In this document: one piece after another, positions 1 to 25,452 of the stretch
How the letters are laid out: each line of letters opens with the position of its first letter
Position numbering within the stretch: the first letter of the stretch is position 1
Assembly (NCBI GenBank): GCA_965248265.1
Contig: CBDFJF010000001.1
Coordinates: 2,944,001-3,008,000 of the forward strand
From: Candidatus Latescibacterota bacterium
Lineage (GTDB): Bacteria; Latescibacterota; UBA2968; UBA8231
Direction of reading: 5' to 3'
DNA: 64,000 bases
Position numbers and translations under genes: made by a program
The notes under the pieces: generated by a model
Databases searched by the model: none
Told to the model about the DNA's origin: nothing
What the model saw: only the letters and a program-made list of their open reading frames with translations

Positions 1-85
1 GGCACGAACAGGATCTTGGGAGCTATCGGGTGGGACCTGCAGAGCGAGCGGAGTTGGGCAAGGTGGTGAGGTAGGGGGGCCATCC

Positions 86-1435
86 TCAGGTAAAGAACTC
101 GGCGTACAGGGAGCGCACGGCAGCGGGCACATCCACTTCCTTGACCCCGAACATCATGCTGACTTCGCTGGATCCCTGGTTGATCATCTCGAGGTTGATG
201 TTGGCCTTCGCCAGCGCACCTGTGGCGCGGGCACAGAGTCCGATCGTGTGCTGCATACCTTCGCCGACGACCATGACCAGCGCCAGGCTGCGTTCCACCG
301 TCACTTCGTCAGCTTCCAGCTCCGTGCGAATACGGCGCAGGACTCGCTCCTCGACCGCGTGGGGGAAAAACTCCTCGCGCGCGATCACGGAAATGTTGTC
401 GATCCCCGACGGAGTATGCTCGAAGGGAATTGCTTCATCTTCGTAGATCTGCAGCAGGCGCCGGCCAAAACCAACCTCCCGGTTCATCAGGTAGCGGCTG
501 ACGTAGACGCTGCAGAACCCGCCCGTGGCAGCAATCCCTACGACTGGCTGGTCTCCGACCTCGCGCTCGCGGACGATGCGGGTGCCGGGGCCTTGCGGAT
601 TGTTCGTGTTCTTTACTTCCACCGCTATACCTGCATGAAAGACCGGTTCCAGCGCCTCATCGTGGAGCACGGAGAAGCCAGCATAAGACAGCTCGCGCAT
701 TTCCCGGTAGGTGATCTCCGCAACTGGTTTCGGATCATCGACGACACCGGGGTTGGCGGCGAACACGGAATCCACGTCGGTGAAGTTTTCGTACAGGTCC
801 GCATCGACGGCAGCGGCCAGGATGGCGCCGGTGATATCGGAGCCGCCGCGCGGAAAGGTGACCAGTTTTCCCGCTTCCGAATAGCCGAAGAAACCGGGAA
901 ACACGCTGATACCGGTGCGCTCGCGCAACTGTCGCAGCTTGCCGTAGGACTGGCGCAAGACTCGTGCGTTGCCGGGTTCATCCGACAGAATCATGCCGGC
1001 TTCACGCGGGTCGATGTAGTGGGCTTCGTGACCGCACTGACGCAGGTGCTCGGCCACCAGGCGAGCGCAGTTGGCCTCTCCCGCCGCTTTCATCCTGTCC
1101 GTGAACGAGGACTCGTCAGCCGGATCCTGTGACAGGCGGCCGTCGAGGTCTTCGACGACAGCCTGTATCGACTCCGGAGGCAGACTCAATCCAGAGGCGA
1201 TTTCGGCGAAGCGTTCCTTGACGCGGTCGAGCTCCGGTTCGCCGGAGTGATTGGTCAGGCGTGCATCCGCAGCCTCGATCAGCAGATCGGTCACCTTGGT
1301 GTCCGTCGCCGATCTCTTTCCCGGGGCCGATACCACGACCAGCCGGCGCTCTGGCTCGCTGGTGATGATGTCACACACCGACCTGATCAAGCCGGCGGTG
1401 GCCAGGGAGCTACCGCCGAATTTCGCCGTTTTCAT
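86..1435 (-). CDS. lysC: Aspartate kinase (two C-terminal ACT domains)
   Basis: KFGGSS, VVSAPGK, FPRGGSDITG and NQGSSE motifs. Start reassigned to ATG 1435 (MKTAKF), giving an ATGA overlap with the upstream stop. Confidence 0.95.
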   Translation of the reverse strand: MKTAKFGGSSLATAGLIRSVCDIITSEPERRLVVVSAPGKRSATDTKVTDLLIEAADARLTNHSGEPELDRVKERFAEIASGLSLPPESIQAVVEDLDGRLSQDPADESSFTDRMKAAGEANCARLVAEHLRQCGHEAHYIDPREAGMILSDEPGNARVLRQSYGKLRQLRERTGISVFPGFFGYSEAGKLVTFPRGGSDITGAILAAAVDADLYENFTDVDSVFAANPGVVDDPKPVAEITYREMRELSYAGFSVLHDEALEPVFHAGIAVEVKNTNNPQGPGTRIVREREVGDQPVVGIAATGGFCSVYVSRYLMNREVGFGRRLLQIYEDEAIPFEHTPSGIDNISVIAREEFFPHAVEERVLRRIRTELEADEVTVERSLALVMVVGEGMQHTIGLCARATGALAKANINLEMINQGSSEVSMMFGVKEVDVPAAVRSLYAEFFT

Positions 1436-2361
1436 TCCCCAATCAACTCCGGAAAATACTCCGTGCACCAATTCTGTAACTGCTCCACATCGTCCATGCT
1501 GGCTGGCGGGTAGGGACCGCGATTGCGCAAACCCGCTCGCAAAAAGCTGGTCAGACGTCCGCCGATGCGGGCGAATGCCGTCTCCGTCAATCCCTTCACA
1601 ACCAGGGCGGCCGCCATAAATTCGCGCAAGGCCCGCAACTTGGTGCAAGTCCCCTCCACCCGGTCCCACTCGCCTTCGTGCAGATCCTGCCATAGCCGCA
1701 AAAACAGAGGTGGGTTCCAGTAGACGAGTTCGGAGCAGCTGCCGCGGACGCCACTGCGACCCAGATGGGCCCACTCCTGCTCATTGGCGAACACGGTCAC
1801 GAAGTCAGAAAGTGCCTGGCATCCCTCGGGAGAGTGGCCCAGCGTTCCCTCATCGACGGCCACCATCTCGTAGTTGGGCACGGCCTCCTTGATCGCCTGG
1901 TGCTGCGCCAGGGTCAGGGCCTTGCGATGACGCTTGGTCTCGAAGATCGACAACGTAATGTGGCCGCAGGCCCGTGACACGTCGCGAAAAAACCCGACAA
2001 CCTGCTCCTCTCCCACCTCCATCCAGAAAGGCAACCCCACCTGAATGGCGTTGGCCCCCGAGTCGGCTGCCCACTCGGCCCGCAGCATGGCACCCTCAGT
2101 GTAGGTGGCCGTACATCCAACCATGGTCGGAATGCCGCGATTGCGACACTCTTCGATCATGGCCTGATTGAGCAGCTTGAACTCTTCCAGCTCCATGGCG
2201 TAGAACTCACCCCCTGGCATCCCGCTACAGATACCGGGGATTCCCGCCTCACAGCAGGAAACCACGTCGGCGCGGTATGTGGCCTCGTCGAACTGATCCT
2301 CGTCCGTCCACGGAACCGGGAGGGCGGCCCATGGGCCGCTGAATTTGCTCTGTTCGGCCAT
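1432..2361 (-). CDS. DapA/NAL-family TIM-barrel protein lacking the catalytic residues
   Basis: ALPVPW..D, GEFYAM, MVGC and GANAIQVGLPFW match the family layout. GTTGE, the catalytic Tyr and the Schiff-base Lys positions are substituted. Start taken at ATG 2361 (MAEQSKF). Confidence 0.85.
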   Translation of the reverse strand: MAEQSKFSGPWAALPVPWTDEDQFDEATYRADVVSCCEAGIPGICSGMPGGEFYAMELEEFKLLNQAMIEECRNRGIPTMVGCTATYTEGAMLRAEWAADSGANAIQVGLPFWMEVGEEQVVGFFRDVSRACGHITLSIFETKRHRKALTLAQHQAIKEAVPNYEMVAVDEGTLGHSPEGCQALSDFVTVFANEQEWAHLGRSGVRGSCSELVYWNPPLFLRLWQDLHEGEWDRVEGTCTKLRALREFMAAALVVKGLTETAFARIGGRLTSFLRAGLRNRGPYPPASMDDVEQLQNWCTEYFPELIGE

Positions 2362-2537
2362 CAGCTGCTTCGAATGGAAGGCACTGTAGAGACTGCACTT
2401 ACCTTTTCCAAGATAAGAAAATGAAAAAACCACGGGTAACAGACGCAACTGAATCCCGTTTTGGCTGCTCTGCGATGTGACGTTGGTCCATCGCAAGACT
2501 CGGCGGTCAGGTGAATGAAGGGGACTCACAGCTGATT

Positions 2538-2700
2538 TGTGGAAAGATCATTCAACACAGGTGTGGAAGATGTGGATAAACAGGACCCAGATGGGTATTC
2601 GAGACCAGAAAAATGAGGCCTTACCGTCTGTCTATAAAAGAGTTATCTTCATTTCTCAGGTTGTCCACAAAACCGTCTGTCTTATCCACATTTATCCACA
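2538..2700. promoter_or_regulatory. DnaA-box cluster outside oriC with a central IHF-like site
   Basis: Perfect boxes at 2571-2579, 2682-2690 and 2692-2700. Near-matches at 2538-2546, 2562-2570 and 2661-2669. TATAAAAGAGTTA at 2633-2645. Confidence 0.8.
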
Positions 2701-2736
2701 CCCACCGCCGGCTATCTGACTAAAACGAAATCTCTC

Positions 2737-4533
2737 ATGCGCAAATTGAGCGACCGGTTGATCTGGCTGGAAGACACCTGCAGCATCTATGCCATCCTCG
2801 GCGATGACGCGACGACATTGATCGACTGCGGCACCCATATGTCGCCTGGTTCCCAATCGGCGCGAACCTTGCCACAGGTCGAGCAGGTTTTGCTCACTCA
2901 CTTCCACCGCGACCAATGCTCATCGGCTCATACCTGGGAGCGTCAGGGGGCCCAGATTATCGCACCGTTTGTCGAGCGCCGCCTTGTTGAGGAAGCTGAC
3001 TTGCTGCGGGCCGGCTATGACCTCTTCGACAACTACACTTCCTACTATCCCTGCTTCAGCCCGCTGGCGGACCTCGAGAAAAGCCGGTTTGCCTTCGATT
3101 ACAACACCATCAACTGGCAGGATCTTTCCTTCGAGGTCGTCCCCTTGCCCGGTCACACCGTCGGCGGAAGCGGTTATCTGTTCGAGATTGACGGCCGCAG
3201 AGTGCTCGCCTGTGGCGATCTCTTGTATGCACCAGGTAAGATGCGCGATTACTACTGGTGTCAGTGGAAGTACATGGACTTTCAGGGCCACGTGAACCTG
3301 ATCGAAAGCCTCGATACAGTCGCCGCCCTCCATGTAGACCTGATCTTGCCGGGGCATGGCGAACCCTTCGAGTCGGGTCCACAGGCCATCGATGGGTTGC
3401 GGGCCGATCTGGCCGAGATCTGGGAAATGTTCAATGGAACCCCCTACCAGCGATTCCAGCCGCAGTTTCGCGAGCTCAGCCCTCATGTGTTCGAGGTAAC
3501 CAACTCGTCGGCCAACAGCTACATCGTCCGCGACGATGAAGGCCATGGCCTGTTCATCGACTGTGGTTACACCTCCAACGCCCCGATAGGCGCTAACCCA
3601 CACCGCTTCATCGATCACATAACGCCACATCTGGAATCCGAGCTGGGAATCCGCACGGTCGAGTTTTTTCTGCCCACGCACTACCATGACGACCACCTGG
3701 CCGGGTACCCGGCGCTGCGGGCTCGCTATGACACCCAGGTGGTATCGTCGATGGCCTGCCGCGATCTGTTGCAGAATCCAGAGCGTTATGACATGCCCTG
3801 TCTGGTACCGCAGGGCCTGACCGTGACACGAGCGGTGATGCCGGCGGAGCCCTTCGATTGGCGCGGCCTCCATTTCTTCATCGAGCCTCATCCCGGCCAG
3901 ACGGTCTACGACCAGCACATCCGCTTCAACGTCGATGGCCGGACCTACGTGGCGATGGGTGATGCGATTTCCGGGAAATCCTTCAGGGAGATTGGACGGG
4001 AATACATTCACTCCTTCATTCCCAAGAACAGGACGCCGTTGTCAACCTACGCCAGCATTCCTCAACGGATTCTCGCACATCGGCCGGACGTGTTGTTGAC
4101 CGGCCATGGTGGCGCCGTCGATTGTGATGCGGAAAAAATGGAAGAGTGGAATAGTTGGATGCAGCGCTGGCAAGCGCTGTTCACGAAGGTCGTGGGGAGG
4201 GAGCATGCCGATGCGGGCATGGACCCGCGTTGGATCGAGTTTTATCCCTACAAAACACGTGTCCACCCCGGAGAGAAGCGTGACTTCCATGTGTGGATGA
4301 AGAACCACGAGCCGCAGCCCAGCTCATGCATGCTGCGCTTTCGCTCCGTTGAGGGAGTCGAAATCGATCCCGTCCAGATCGAGTTACAGCTCGAGGCCGG
4401 GGAAAAGACCGTGCGCGAGATCCACGTCCACTTTCCGCAGTCCTTTCAGACCCATTCCCTTACCATTCTGGCCGACGTCACCTGGAACGGCAACGCGCTC
4501 GGAGAGATCGCCGAAGCCATCGCCTACTGGTAA
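2737..4533 (+). CDS. MBL-fold metallo-hydrolase with two tandem MBL domains
   Basis: Domain 1 has IDCG, THFHRD, PGHT, GD and PGHG. Domain 2 has IDCG, THYHDDH, GD and TGHG. A beta-rich C-terminal domain follows. Confidence 0.85.
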   Translation: MRKLSDRLIWLEDTCSIYAILGDDATTLIDCGTHMSPGSQSARTLPQVEQVLLTHFHRDQCSSAHTWERQGAQIIAPFVERRLVEEADLLRAGYDLFDNYTSYYPCFSPLADLEKSRFAFDYNTINWQDLSFEVVPLPGHTVGGSGYLFEIDGRRVLACGDLLYAPGKMRDYYWCQWKYMDFQGHVNLIESLDTVAALHVDLILPGHGEPFESGPQAIDGLRADLAEIWEMFNGTPYQRFQPQFRELSPHVFEVTNSSANSYIVRDDEGHGLFIDCGYTSNAPIGANPHRFIDHITPHLESELGIRTVEFFLPTHYHDDHLAGYPALRARYDTQVVSSMACRDLLQNPERYDMPCLVPQGLTVTRAVMPAEPFDWRGLHFFIEPHPGQTVYDQHIRFNVDGRTYVAMGDAISGKSFREIGREYIHSFIPKNRTPLSTYASIPQRILAHRPDVLLTGHGGAVDCDAEKMEEWNSWMQRWQALFTKVVGREHADAGMDPRWIEFYPYKTRVHPGEKRDFHVWMKNHEPQPSSCMLRFRSVEGVEIDPVQIELQLEAGEKTVREIHVHFPQSFQTHSLTILADVTWNGNALGEIAEAIAYW

Positions 4534-4553
4534 AGGGAGGACCCTCCGGGTCC

Positions 4554-5972
4554 TCAGGACCATTTGGCGGTCCCGGGACCCTCCAGCCGATTCAGCCCGT
4601 TTAAAGCCGCGATTCTGTAGCCTTCAGCGAAGGTTGGATAGTTGAAGATCGTGTCGACGAAGTAGTCGGCCTTGACTCGCAGGTTGATCGCCATCTGCCC
4701 GATCGGAATGAGCTCCGTCGCCATGGTACCGATGATGTGGACGGCCAGCATTTCAAGCGTCTGAGCGTGGAAGATGAGCTTGATCATCCCCTGGGTGTCG
4801 CCGGCTATCGGTCCGCGCGCCATTTCGGAATAGAGCGCCCGACCGACCTCGTAATGCACTCCGATATCCTTCAGTTCTTCTTCCGTCGGCCCCACGCTGG
4901 AGATTTCTGGAATAGTGTAGATCCCGTAGGGAAAGAATTCGGGGAAGTGATGACTTTTGATCATCAGGGCGTTGCGGATCGCCAGACGACCCTGCTCCAC
5001 GGATGTGGATGCCAGCGCCGGCGGCCCGATGACATCCCCTGCGCCATAAATGTGCGGTTGAGTGGTCTGAAACAGCGCGTTCACGGGAATGTATCCCAGC
5101 TTGTCCAGCTCGATTCCCGCCTTGTCCAATCCGAGCCCATCGACGTTGGCGATACGGCCCATGGAATAGAACAGGCGGTCCGCCACCAGACTGCCCCCCT
5201 CCTTGAGCACGACCTCCGCTCTGCCATCGGCGCTCTTGCGCAACGCATCGATGCCCTCGCCCAGTCTCACGGACAATCCCGACATCTGGTGTATGTAGTC
5301 GGCGAATGCTTGGGATATTTCCAGGTCCAGCATCCGCAGCAGGTCGTCGCGCCGGTCCATGAGAATGACCTCGATGCCCAGGGCCGCGAACATGGTGGCG
5401 TACTCACAGCCGATGATCCCACCGCCCAATATGATCAGTGACTTGGGCAGGCTGTTCATGCGGAAGATCTCATCGGAATCCAGGAACAGGTCGGGCTCTT
5501 CTGGCAGGTCGATGGGGTGGCGCGGTCTGGACCCAGTGGAGATGAGGACCTTGTCGGCCTCGAAGCGGGCGCTCACCTGGCCGGCCTCATTCATGACTTC
5601 AACAATGTGCTCGTCCGTGAAGTGTGCCGTTCCGAAGGCGGTGCCAATATCGTTTGCCTCGCATTGCTCGCTCAGAACCCGATTCTCATCCTCGATCACC
5701 TTGTTTACGCGTGACCTGAGTTCATCGAAGGATATCTCGTGCTGAGGTCCCTCGCCTCCGTGGTACCCCGAGTGAATGAAACCGGTCATATCCAGAATGG
5801 CCTGACGCAGAGCCTTCGACGGTACGGTGCCATGGTTGAGGCAGGCACCACCAAGCAACCCGAGGCGATCGGCGACGACGACCTTGAGACCCCCCTTGGC
5901 TCCCTGGATGGCTCCCTTCTGCCCGGCGGGTCCTGCCCCGATCACGAGTAGATCCACTTGCTCCGTCTTCAT
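4554..5972 (-). CDS. sthA: Soluble pyridine nucleotide transhydrogenase
   Basis: GAGPAG FAD motif. GGACLNHGTVPSK is the CxxxxT form typical of SthA. GGGIIG and FNYPTFAE are present. Confidence 0.88.
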   Translation of the reverse strand: MKTEQVDLLVIGAGPAGQKGAIQGAKGGLKVVVADRLGLLGGACLNHGTVPSKALRQAILDMTGFIHSGYHGGEGPQHEISFDELRSRVNKVIEDENRVLSEQCEANDIGTAFGTAHFTDEHIVEVMNEAGQVSARFEADKVLISTGSRPRHPIDLPEEPDLFLDSDEIFRMNSLPKSLIILGGGIIGCEYATMFAALGIEVILMDRRDDLLRMLDLEISQAFADYIHQMSGLSVRLGEGIDALRKSADGRAEVVLKEGGSLVADRLFYSMGRIANVDGLGLDKAGIELDKLGYIPVNALFQTTQPHIYGAGDVIGPPALASTSVEQGRLAIRNALMIKSHHFPEFFPYGIYTIPEISSVGPTEEELKDIGVHYEVGRALYSEMARGPIAGDTQGMIKLIFHAQTLEMLAVHIIGTMATELIPIGQMAINLRVKADYFVDTIFNYPTFAEGYRIAALNGLNRLEGPGTAKWS

Positions 5973-17156: not shown

Positions 17157-18320
17157 TCAGCTGCTTGGACGCATCGGCATCAGCAAGTAGTACGACTCTT
17201 CTCCCTCGGCCTGCACACTGGGGCGCACGATGGCCGCTGTTACGGAGTCGCGCAGATCGAAGACGACATTGCCCGCTCCCATCTTCCGCAGGATTTCTAT
17301 CAGGTATTGCGCGTTGTAGGCCAGCTCCAGCGCTTCCCCCGCGTACTGCCCCGGTATTTGCTCCCGGGCTTCTCCGCCAATCTCCTGACTGGACGCGTTC
17401 AGCTCCACGGCGTCGTCGCTGAGGGCCATCCGTACCTGGTGCGTGTACGAGCTTGAGAGAATGGACACTCTCCTTACTGCTGGAAGCATCTCATCCACCG
17501 GGACGGTCAGACTCTTGTCATTCTCCCGCGGTACGACTTGCTCGTAGTCGACGTAGGGTCCTTCGATCAAGCGAGACAGTAGCCGGGTTTCACCGAGCTC
17601 GAACAGAACCTGACTGGATCCGACCGTAACTTTTTTCAATTCCGGAGAGCCCTCCAGCAATTTGCTGATCTGCGCGCAAACCTGTGGAGGAAGTATTACT
17701 TCGGTCCCCTCACCCAGCCCATCGATCCCAGATCCATTCCACTGCTGCTTGAATTCAGCCAATCGGCTGCCATCGGTGGCGACCATCGCCATGTGCTCGG
17801 CCTCAAGGCGCCACAACACCCCGTTGAGGACCGGCCTGGTTTCGTCTCGAGAAACGGCGAAACTCGTCTTGTCGATCATGGACCTGAGCAATTGACCATC
17901 AGAAATCCCGACTTCCTCGAAATCGACTGTCACGCCATCGATCGAGTCTGGCATTTCTGGAAACTCTTCGGGGGGTGCGGTTGCCAGACTGTAGCGTCCC
18001 TCACCTTTGTCCTGACCGAGTGAGCCGCTGACAACGAACCGTCCGTCCTCCACAGATACGTTCAGGACGCTCTCAGGCCATTCTCGCGCGATTTCAGCCA
18101 ATGTCCTGGCCGGAACAGCCACTCGCCCCGGTTGATCAACCTGAGCACTAATCCTCGTCGACATGGACAAATCTAGATCAGTCGCACCTAGCGTTACTCC
18201 GCCTTCACCAGCATCCAGTAGAAGGTTGGAGAGTACCGGCTGAGCTGGCTTGGACGGCACTGCGTCCAGGACAGTGCTGATGCCCTTCCACAACTCACTT
18301 CGATCTACAGACAATTTCAT
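17157..18320 (-). CDS. dnaN: DNA polymerase III beta clamp
   Basis: ATDLD, DETRPVLNGV, VATDGSRL, SRLIEG.Y and LLMPMR motifs. Confidence 0.97.
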   Translation of the reverse strand: MKLSVDRSELWKGISTVLDAVPSKPAQPVLSNLLLDAGEGGVTLGATDLDLSMSTRISAQVDQPGRVAVPARTLAEIAREWPESVLNVSVEDGRFVVSGSLGQDKGEGRYSLATAPPEEFPEMPDSIDGVTVDFEEVGISDGQLLRSMIDKTSFAVSRDETRPVLNGVLWRLEAEHMAMVATDGSRLAEFKQQWNGSGIDGLGEGTEVILPPQVCAQISKLLEGSPELKKVTVGSSQVLFELGETRLLSRLIEGPYVDYEQVVPRENDKSLTVPVDEMLPAVRRVSILSSSYTHQVRMALSDDAVELNASSQEIGGEAREQIPGQYAGEALELAYNAQYLIEILRKMGAGNVVFDLRDSVTAAIVRPSVQAEGEESYYLLMPMRPSS

Positions 18321-18967
18321 GGGTATTCATCCCGAAAATCCGACGTATGTTAATCAATATAATATAGATGTACGTCCGTTTGTTGTCAATTTGGGCGGCC
18401 GTGTCCTTCCAGTTTCGTGTAGTGTCATAACATATTGTAAATATATGAATTTAAAGAAACACCTTCTAAATGATGATGAACAAGAGGTTGTCCCTGGATT
18501 CGTTTGTTTCCACAGGTTGACTGCGGAGGTTCTTTATCCACAATCCATTGTTCTAGAATTATCTATCTGTTCTTGGTTTTGTACGTACTCGTTCTAGTCG
18601 GTCTTGTTGATATGTTGAGAATTCTTGTCCGCAACCGGAGTATAGTTTTTAAGTTATTGTTTTATATATAATTAAACTACGATAACAGAATCACACATGG
18701 AATCACAGAGTGTTGATAACCGGGCGTGTGGCACTAGGTTCAGGCCACTTTCGAACACGATTCCGGGCGTGAGGGGTTATCCACACTTATATCCACACCA
18801 TCCAAGCTCCCGTTGACATGCACAATCGAGAAAAATGTGGATAAGTTTATTCTGATACGAAATCCGCTAATCGAAAGACGTTTGTGGGCATGGGAGCATA
18901 CCCCTGGAGGTGATTGAGTAGTAGAGGCGGTTTCCGCAGACGGATGACGGGCACCGCCTGCGGGTAG
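18321..18967. other. oriC: Chromosomal replication origin (oriC) between dnaA and dnaN
   Basis: AT-rich intergenic region. Perfect DnaA boxes at 18534-18542, 18777-18785 and 18836-18844. Near-matches at 18506-18514, 18711-18719 and 18789-18797. A (GAT)n tract near 18471-18480 sits beside an AT-rich stretch. Confidence 0.88.
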
Positions 18968-25303: not shown

Positions 25304-25452
25304 TTATCCACAACTTTCCACGCGGCAAATGTGGAAAGCTTTAGGCGCATGTGTTTTCAGGGCAAACCTGTTATTTAACAATAAGTTACGCCGTAAAATG
25401 TGTGACTGGATCAGTCTTTCGCCAGAGCAATCGATTCAGCATTTGTGGAAAA
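25304..25452. promoter_or_regulatory. Second DnaA-box cluster outside oriC with an IHF-like site
   Basis: TTATCCACA 25304-25312, CTTTCCACG 25314-25322, TGTGGAAAG 25330-25338, TAACAATAAGTTA 25376-25388 and TGTGGAAAA 25444-25452. Confidence 0.7.

Follow-up and report, generated by a model that had tools for sequence, protein, structure and literature searches.

What does a protein with the fold of dihydrodipicolinate synthase (DHDPS) do when its catalytic residues are gone and its gene runs directly into that of an aspartate kinase (AK)? The question is raised by a pair of genes on the reverse strand of the window, the 64,000-nucleotide stretch of Latescibacterota DNA that was analysed (Table 1). 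A preliminary description of this DNA had proposed that the upstream gene encodes a catalytically dead DapA-fold protein, possibly a ligand-sensing partner of the kinase. The intact 309-residue reading frame, its ATGA overlap with the AK gene and the positions given for the three substituted sites all proved correct. Within the overlap, the TGA of the DHDPS-like gene occupies 1432–1434 and the ATG of the AK gene 1433–1435. The N-terminus of the DHDPS-like protein agrees with that of its family, and that of the AK, MKTAKFGGSS, is the consensus of its homologues. No other AK was detected in the genome.

Table 1. Features of the gene pair and its upstream region (window coordinates)
Feature	Position	Strand	Evidence
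DHDPS/NAL-fold protein gene, pseudoenzyme candidate, 309 aa	1432..2361	-	Intact ORF, PF00701, model, Foldseek, dN/dS
MPGGE, residues 48–52, replacing the family GTTGE pyruvate-carboxylate/proton-relay motif	2206..2220	-	Family alignment, 7loy alignment
Phe140 replacing the catalytic Tyr, end of strand 5	1942..1944	-	Family alignment, 7loy, AlphaFold2 model
Ala168 replacing the Schiff-base Lys, strand 6	1858..1860	-	Family alignment, 7loy, AlphaFold2 model
ATGA overlap of DHDPS-like gene stop and aspartokinase gene start	1432..1435	-	
Aspartate kinase (AK), 449 aa, AA_kinase domain and ACT domains	86..1435	-	NF006540, 596 bits vs cut-off 434
Intergenic region, 375 bp, upstream of the two-gene unit and common to the divergent MBL gene	2362..2736	.	
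Metallo-beta-lactamase-fold (MBL) protein, 598 aa, divergently transcribed	2737..4533	+	

The proposed fold was confirmed by alignment with PF00701, where the window protein reaches 39.9 bits (cut-off 22.1). Its AlphaFold2 model (pLDDT 93.8, pTM 0.91) has eight strand/helix repeats, and Foldseek aligns it with NAL, YagE and DHDPS structures at TM 0.81–0.86. Both by the Pfam threshold and by the presence of a barrel followed by a C-terminal helical domain, the window protein thus has the DHDPS/NAL fold. The same (beta/alpha)8 barrel and C-terminal helical domain are found in the class I aldolases DapA, N-acetylneuraminate lyase, the YagE/YjhH 2-keto-3-deoxy-sugar-acid aldolases and the NahE/PhdJ hydratase-aldolases; unlike these, the window protein has no Schiff-base Lys, strand-5 Tyr or Thr-Thr of GTTGE, whilst Arg144, which aligns with the substrate-binding Arg of DHDPS, is kept. 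The protein scores far under the cut-off of every NCBIfam equivalog. Annotations should be read with care here, as such genes now carry the names ‘dihydrodipicolinate synthase family protein’ or ‘4-hydroxy-tetrahydrodipicolinate synthase’.

Neither the Schiff-base Lys, nor the G-[ST]-T-G-E motif after strand 2, nor the strand-5 Tyr is present in the window protein, which carries GMPGGE instead of GGTTGE, Phe140 at the place of the catalytic Tyr and Ala168 at that of the Lys. The family profile segments ggttGe, siyet.tr and mvkan align with AGTTGE, IYIYNNPSR and VGVKD of 7loy, a solved DHDPS with pyruvate bound according to its entry title, and in the AlphaFold2 model A168 lies in strand 164–169, F140 in strand 136–141 and P49/G50 just past strand 43–46. 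All 80 family loci taken from genome contigs have the Lys and 79 of them the Tyr; the Lys is also present in 185 of 196 aligned proteins, each of at least 280 aa. Given the counts for the loci, the alignment indicates that the substitutions in the window protein are not chance variation. The profile, the model and the counts all uphold the earlier proposal that the protein lost its catalytic Lys, Tyr and Thr-Thr but kept the scaffold. A second Tyr, donated by the neighbouring subunit, is Tyr107 in E. coli DapA; at this point the whole family has PFW (F112, W113) where 7loy has PYY. K143, in the stretch ETKRHRK, was considered as a replacement Schiff-base Lys and rejected as the main reading, since the Lys-keeping family has T, K, L, M or R at this position; the Arg at 143 in the sister Lys-less group also disfavours it.

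Of 86 family-conserved positions, 71 are kept in the window group, including Arg144 and most of the barrel-top residues, and 15 are changed. Nine of the changed positions fall in the barrel-top zone, where 24 of 33 conserved positions are kept, although this enrichment is not significant on its own (9/33 versus 6/53, p=0.08). Within the group, 7 of the 15 changed positions are variable, as against 5 of the 71 retained, and the former catalytic positions are themselves among those that vary (M/L48, G/A50, F/L140, D/N170).

The link to lysine-pathway DapA drawn in the preliminary description did not hold. The window protein scores 28.4 bits against TIGR00674 (cut-off 206.15) and is not a decayed DapA. 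The canonical dapA, which shares the fold, is a separate gene in the genome (G000:C1:548158-549033; 220 bits against the TIGR00674 cut-off of 206). A housekeeping DapA role for the AK-linked clade was likewise rejected, since a separate, above-cut-off dapA is present in G000 and in five of the five relatives tested. Instead, the window protein nests by phylogeny inside a family of ∼309 aa with the consensus GPWAGLPVAW...GGTTGEFYAM...SIYETTRAKK...MVKAN, with which it has 40–60% identity, equal length and the 71 conserved positions in common. This family occurs in genomes labelled Planctomycetota, Verrucomicrobiota, Lentisphaerota, Latescibacterota and Gemmatimonadota, and its neighbours are Amidohydro_2, SSF symporter, sulfatase, MR/MLE, SDR, AKR and BNR genes; this gene context, from which its biochemical activity is read, suggests an aldolase-like family of sugar-acid catabolic clusters. 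In contrast to the window protein, the other family members keep the catalytic residues and adjoin catabolic genes rather than AK. A second, independent loss of the Lys (K to H) is found elsewhere in the family.

The window protein belongs to an AK-linked clade (SH-aLRT 100; 27 rows) whose loci all come from one bacterial family. Within this lies a Lys-less subclade (SH-aLRT 89; 15 rows), also recovered by FastTree, in which the Lys column holds A, V, C or M. A single loss of the Lys within the AK-linked clade is the most parsimonious account, and the losses of Tyr and Thr-Thr in the window's group come on top of it. The stem of the Lys-less subclade is long (0.55, versus 0.18–0.33 for Lys-keeping stems). 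The sequences compared are related, so that the counts given here overstate their independence.

Among the Lys-less loci of the A/V/M lineages with genomic context, the gene lies directly upstream of AK on the same strand in six of six (WIN, L113, L114, L115, L116 and L117); this count covers loci with context, and the Lys-less proteins P0007, P0094, P0113 and P0126 stand outside it. Lys-keeping members of the clade have the same arrangement (L013–L016, L067 and L094–L097), and the gene is found upstream of the orthologous AK in G000, G001, G005, G007, G011 and G019 as well as at L114–L117. The distance from its stop to the AK start is −4, −4, −26 and −26 in the window group, +13 and +18 at the other Lys-less loci and +12 to +133 at Lys-keeping loci, so a stop/start overlap is found in the window's group only. 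The expectation that homologues next to lysC would share the substitutions was realised in L114, L115 and L116 (85–93% identity), whereas the distant ones keep Lys, mostly Tyr, and Thr/Ser; retention of Lys/Tyr/Thr in syntenic relatives, which the preliminary description had named as counting against it, is thus seen in the more distant AK-adjacent relatives. Similarly, the expected conserved linkage with LysC holds within the clade but has exceptions. G013, G014 and G015 have the orthologous AK (71–78% identity), but the 1.5 kb upstream of it lacks such a gene, and the P0001 search of these three genomes gave no match at E≤1e-30 genome-wide. In the lineage with Cys in place of Lys (G012, G023) no AK lies within 8 kb of the gene, and these genomes have a different AK type.

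Selection on the gene is nevertheless strong in the window group, where dN/dS is 0.060–0.081 (six pairs, dS 0.54–1.42); dS is above 1 and close to saturation for some of these pairs, and the most reliable pair is WIN–L114 (dS 0.54, dN/dS 0.081). The corresponding values are 0.048–0.114 for Lys-keeping AK-linked pairs and 0.044–0.117 for AK, with a higher value, 0.23, for the Cys lineage (G012, G023). The preliminary description had looked for a dN/dS below 1, and the rates indicate strong purifying selection on the Lys-less gene, comparable to that on its Lys-keeping relatives and on the kinase. A dN/dS of 0.06–0.08 points to a maintained pseudoenzyme or a re-purposed protein and not to a pseudogene. 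Those attributes of a pseudoenzyme that were tested, missing catalytic residues and purifying selection, were both observed.

With moderate confidence, we judge the window protein to be a selection-maintained pseudoenzyme, a full DHDPS/NAL barrel unable to carry out class I (Schiff-base) aldolase chemistry and kept for another role. A paralogue of the ∼309-aa aldolase-like family became fixed directly upstream of the 449-aa AK in one bacterial family; the Lys was lost within that clade, and the window's group lost the Tyr and Thr-Thr as well. The stem branch is long, yet present-day dN/dS is ∼0.07. The protein may now serve to bind, without catalysis, either a protein or a small carboxylate ligand, and translational coupling may cause it to be made in fixed proportion with AK, which is the first candidate partner. 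That the protein is decaying, or that its frame stays open merely so that the coupled downstream kinase is expressed, is very improbable. The loss of the catalytic residues is what such decay would produce, and the stop/start overlap makes it plausible that AK translation depends on upstream translation, but the dN/dS reflects selection on the amino-acid sequence, beyond integrity of the frame. One copy, in G011, is indeed broken by a frameshift and a TAG; however, the adjoining AK is also split into two frames, which makes assembly error as likely as real decay, and every other Lys-less sequence seen has an intact ORF.

Two further readings concern what the protein would do. It may physically bind and modulate AK as a regulatory or ligand-sensing subunit, although we think this unlikely. 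The gene is directly upstream of AK throughout the A/V/M Lys-less loci with context and in Lys-keeping clade members, the overlap arose in no lineage but the most degenerate one, and strong selection acts on the gene in a genome where a single AK was detected. Against this, the orthologous AK works without the gene in three genomes, in the Cys lineage the gene is not linked to AK and the AK is of another type, and the parent family is catabolic with no link to the aspartate pathway. Moreover, the linkage is of single phylogenetic origin: with every AK-linked locus belonging to the same bacterial family, it amounts to one evolutionary event, and inertia could be what maintains it. A complex prediction for AK and the DHDPS-like protein, run without controls, scored 0.00 against a mark of 0.32 and weighs neither way. 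It is similarly doubtful that the sugar-acid-aldolase-derived pseudoenzyme is a stoichiometric, translationally coupled regulatory subunit of AK that senses a 2-keto-acid or sugar-acid signal in its retained half-pocket and couples it to entry into the aspartate family. Retained non-Schiff-base catalysis in the distal pocket (Arg144, Thr142, Glu52, Tyr54, Gln107, Glu194, Ser210, Tyr214 and Asn216) seems to us a comparably weak prospect. The barrel-top positions that are kept, a dN/dS as low as that of Lys-keeping relatives and the varied filling of the Lys site by lineage, including Cys (with Tyr to Cys) and His, would all be consistent with it. The variation of the former catalytic positions in the window group, on the other hand, is what relaxation, and not a new set of catalytic residues, would give, and the missing Lys is, in passages of bioRxiv 10.1101/505230, the conserved pyruvate-binding residue of the superfamily.

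It is this role of the Lys in the NAL superfamily, as given in those passages (bioRxiv 10.1101/505230), that makes a natural clade without it of interest. The same source, in passages on two annotated DHDPS structures, 3E96 and 3D0C, proposes them as inactive NAL-superfamily members. Both are weak matches of the window protein. On that account they resemble it as natural members with the scaffold kept and catalytic-triad residues missing, but they keep the Schiff-base Lys, whereas the window protein lacks the Lys, has had selection on it measured and is encoded by a gene coupled to AK. Literature searches returned no paper pairing dihydrodipicolinate synthase with pseudoenzyme, none on an aldolase that ‘lacks the catalytic lysine’ and none on the DHDPS Schiff base mentioning K161A. 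A search for papers that share at least four of the subjects DHDPS, aspartate kinase, catalytic lysine, Schiff base, inactive and paralog gave nothing relevant by title or abstract, and one on aspartate kinase, Latescibacter and lysine biosynthesis nothing relevant among the matches listed.

We know of no Lys-independent member of the NAL superfamily. The clade offers a clean, natural setting in which to study what remains possible for a class I aldolase barrel once catalysis is gone. Were AK the partner, poorly known, uncultured phyla would have a new kind of control over the step by which Lys, Thr and Met synthesis begins. As a point in common with systems built on Lys/Thr-regulated aspartate kinases, the gene next to that of the DHDPS-like protein encodes an AK, but no AK known to us uses a DHDPS-fold subunit. 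Should the protein be such a subunit, it would found a new class of AK regulators and be, to our knowledge, the first Lys-less superfamily member with a demonstrated function.

The region around the gene pair was also searched for regulatory elements. An Rfam scan of positions 1–5000 gave no match at E≤1, be it to a lysine riboswitch or to another known leader, and a promoter and terminator scan of positions 1–3000 gave one promoter-like and one terminator-like site, no more than in shuffled sequences and neither usefully placed. Four DnaA-box-like sites lie at 2571–2700, within the 375-bp intergenic region. The divergent MBL neighbour recurs at the Lys-less AK-linked loci L114–L117 and L113, and also at L067.

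P0001, the 309-residue DHDPS/NAL-fold protein of the window, matches the Pfam DHDPS family (PF00701) weakly but over the threshold (39.9 bits against 22.1), and scores far under all the NCBIfam equivalog cut-offs (dapA, for example, 28.4 against 206). Its AlphaFold2 model, built from a 90-sequence alignment, has a pLDDT of 93.8 and a pTM of 0.91, and Foldseek matches this model to NAL, YagE and DHDPS structures at TM 0.81–0.86. Where the family consensus reads GGTTGEFYAM, LSIYETTRAKK and YLMVKANAGT, P0001 has GMPGGEFYAM, LSIFETKRHRK and YEMVAVDEGT; the residue coordinates that the preliminary description had assigned to these three substituted sites proved exact on re-checking. The family profile pairs the motifs with AGTTGE, IYIYNNPSR and VGVKD of the solved DHDPS 7loy, whose entry title records bound pyruvate, so that the three columns are the superfamily Thr-Thr pair, the catalytic Tyr (with the substrate Arg) and the Schiff-base Lys. 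In E. coli numbering we take these to be T44/T45, Y133 (with R138) and K161. In the model, A168 and F140 lie within strands 164–169 and 136–141, respectively.

Word-indexed searching gave 450 homologues at E ≤ 0.001 (2175 candidates), and exhaustive searching of the representatives of 50%-identity clusters gave 670, with 31 at E ≤ 1e-30; family members are about 309 aa long. At the 80 loci fetched from genome contigs, Lys is present in all 80 and Tyr in 79 (L013 has Asn), whilst at position 49 there are 76 Thr and 4 Ser. In a set of 196 proteins, each 280 aa or longer and drawn from both searches, the Lys column holds K in 185, A in 8, V in 1 and R in 2, the R rows being distant sequences and possibly misaligned. 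Lys is replaced by Ala and Thr-Thr lost in P0001, P0003, P0004 and P0005 (Tyr to F or L) and in loci L114, L115 and L116 (Tyr to F); Ala is found with Tyr and Thr-Thr kept in P0094, P0110, P0113, P0126, L117 and L120. Thr-Thr is also kept where Lys becomes Val (P0007; Tyr to F), Met (the genome G011 copy, L109/L113; Tyr to F) or His (L118 and L119; Tyr to E). In a sister Lys-less lineage (L098/L099, the same loci as L111/L112; motif GGP[SA]GE), Cys occupies both the Lys and Tyr positions and the first Thr is Pro. The L118 and L119 proteins, which retain GGTTGE, share a very long stem (1.0) and have no aspartate kinase (AK) gene nearby. The window's genome, with about 20 PF00701 matches, has a second, Lys-keeping family member (L107, 42% identity) adjoining AIG2/GGACT-like and GDSL-esterase genes.

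Coordinates of the features discussed (window positions unless a genome or locus is named)
Feature	Position	Strand	Remarks
P0002, 449-aa AK	86–1435	-	
P0001, 309 aa	1432–2361	-	intact
DnaA-box-like cluster	2571–2700		3 perfect, 1 one-mismatch site; intergenic, upstream of the DHDPS-like/AK unit
Metallo-beta-lactamase-fold protein, 598 aa	2737–4533	+	
Pyridine-nucleotide-disulphide oxidoreductase	4554–5972	-	
dnaN	17157–18320	-	
DnaA-box-like cluster	18534–18844		3 perfect, 2 one-mismatch sites; between dnaA and dnaN
dnaA	18968–20473	-	
DnaA-box-like cluster	25304–25452		1 perfect, 1 mismatched site
Canonical dapA	G000 (window's genome) C1:548158–549033		220 bits
Second family member (L107)	G000:C1:1060939–1061844		
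Lys-to-Cys gene	L111 7995–8924		
Lys-to-His gene	L118 1900–2814		
Lys-to-His gene	L119 1257–2171		

The end of the P0001 gene (...GGG GAA TGA) and the start of the P0002 gene (ATG AAA ACG) share bases as an ATGA overlap. P0002 is an aspartate kinase with AA_kinase and ACT domains (596 bits on NF006540, cut-off 434), and was the sole AK detected by a TIGR00657 search (one match among five scored candidates) of its 7.32-Mb genome (2 contigs, 92% completeness). Of the 80 loci, just 5 (L013–L016 and L067) have an AK gene directly downstream; they hold the closest relatives (55–58% identity), and their AK is 72–76% identical to that of the window. Related genomes supplied further Lys-keeping, AK-linked copies (L094–L097), and metagenome loci L114–L117 are both Lys-less and AK-linked. 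Across 40 related genomes, P0001 matches at E ≤ 1e-30 occurred in 13 of the 24 that share its taxonomic family and in none of the 16 that represent other families of that class.

Two trees were calculated: FastTree on 112 rows, from which L093, L109, L110 and locus proteins shorter than 280 aa were excluded, and IQ-TREE in quick mode on 55 chosen rows (every AK-linked or Lys-less row, together with 26 further ones). Both place all AK-linked and all A/V/C Lys-less sequences in one clade with support of 100, within which the Lys-less rows form one subclade (FastTree 92, SH-aLRT 89). L118 and L119 fall outside this clade, implying at least two Lys losses in the family. As all AK-linked loci come from one bacterial family, the linkage counts as a single event. 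The distance from stop codon to AK start is -4, -4, -26 and -26 in the window group (P0001 with L114–L116), +18 and +13 in other Lys-less AK-linked loci, and +12 to +133 in seven Lys-keeping loci; since only the window group has negative distances, the overlap is confined to the lineage whose site is most degenerate.

The intact frame could belong to a pseudogene, or be held open merely for translational coupling. By the Nei–Gojobori method, dN/dS for the Lys-less gene within the window group is 0.060–0.081 (six pairs, dS 0.54–1.42), which rules out both, and is to be set beside 0.048–0.114 for five Lys-keeping AK-linked pairs, 0.044–0.117 for AK itself and 0.23 for the Lys-to-Cys pair. The window-group stem carries 0.55 substitutions per site against 0.18–0.33 for Lys-keeping stems: rapid change there gave way to tight constraint. 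A descent from the lysine-pathway DapA is likewise rejected. Neighbour maps of 89 loci and the window (greedy ORF picking and blastp clustering, imperfect owing to shadow ORFs in high-GC DNA) place Lys-keeping members near Amidohydro_2 (22 loci), sulfatase-like (26 ORFs, 22 loci) and sodium:solute symporter (16 loci) genes, other common neighbours being MR/MLE enolase-superfamily, SDR, aldo/keto reductase, BNR and FAD-oxidoreductase proteins. This is the composition of oxidative, non-phosphorylative sugar-acid pathways, and from gene context only we infer that the family was ancestrally a 2-keto-3-deoxy-sugar-acid aldolase; the best matches by sequence and by fold include YagE and NAL, which fits this ancestry. 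A separate dapA is present in each of the five relatives tested.

The best-supported reading of these sequence comparisons is that P0001 is probably a maintained DHDPS/NAL-fold pseudoenzyme co-expressed with aspartate kinase. The nearest precedent found, the annotated DHDPS structures 3E96 and 3D0C, argued in a preprint (bioRxiv 10.1101/505230) to be inactive, differs in that Lys is reportedly kept there and gone in P0001. Searches of the literature outside subscription journals and supplementary files turned up no description of a natural clade lacking the Lys. Of 86 positions at least 90% conserved across 81 family rows (AK-linked and Lys-less rows set aside), 15 are changed in the window group, 9 of them in a 64-residue barrel-top zone delimited from the strands of the model, an enrichment that falls short of significance (p=0.08). 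Inside the group, seven of these 15 vary (M/L48, G/A50, F/L140 and D/N170 among them) against 5 of the 71 retained, a contrast with a Fisher p of 0.0006, although relatedness among the sequences makes this figure look stronger than it is. Among the positions kept are Arg144, Thr142, Glu52, Tyr54, Gln107, Trp113, Glu194, Ser210 and Tyr214; Arg144 and the distal pocket suggest a carboxylate as a candidate ligand. In Lys-keeping AK-linked copies the catalytic positions are already drifting (83% have Tyr, and half have Ser at position 50).

Given the operon and the evolved overlap, AK is the first protein to consider as a candidate partner of P0001. Against an obligatory partnership, genomes G013, G014 and G015 have an orthologous AK (71–78% identity) with no P0001-type gene in the 1.5 kb upstream and no P0001 match at E ≤ 1e-30; in G015 the upstream gene, 110 bp away, encodes a class II fumarase/aspartase-type lyase. 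No AK gene lies within 8 kb in the Lys-to-Cys lineage (G012, G023), whose AK is of a different, shorter type.

Two AK types occur in one bacterial family, 449-aa NF006540-like and shorter (TIGR00657 positions 1–61 and 103–441), as compared across G006, G009, G012 and G023 versus G000, G001, G005, G007 and G013–G015. The Lys-to-Cys gene (L111 and L112; genomes G023 and G012) is flanked by a class-V aminotransferase gene and a divergent aldo/keto reductase gene. At G011:C22 the DHDPS-like gene is broken by a frameshift and one TAG and the adjacent AK is split over two frames, reflecting either real decay or assembly error. Conserved beside the unit in L116, L117 and L067 are the metallo-beta-lactamase-fold protein and the oxidoreductase, and an 883-aa PD-(D/E)XK protein comes after AK in L014, L016 and L116. 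The family, Lys-keeping members included, has invariant or near-invariant cysteines at C36/C37, C83, C181 and C209 of P0001 (RCCEAG, GCT, EGC, GxCSS), and the window group additionally has Cys45 in place of an invariant Tyr. To our knowledge, such conserved cysteines are unusual among DHDPS/NAL enzymes.

DnaA-box-like TTATCCACA sites form three clusters in the window. Over the whole window there are 12 such sites where 7.1 are expected, a number reached in 6 of 100 shuffles, so only the clustering is notable. The dnaA–dnaN cluster looks like an oriC-type arrangement, and lies about 16 kb from the one upstream of the DHDPS-like/AK unit.
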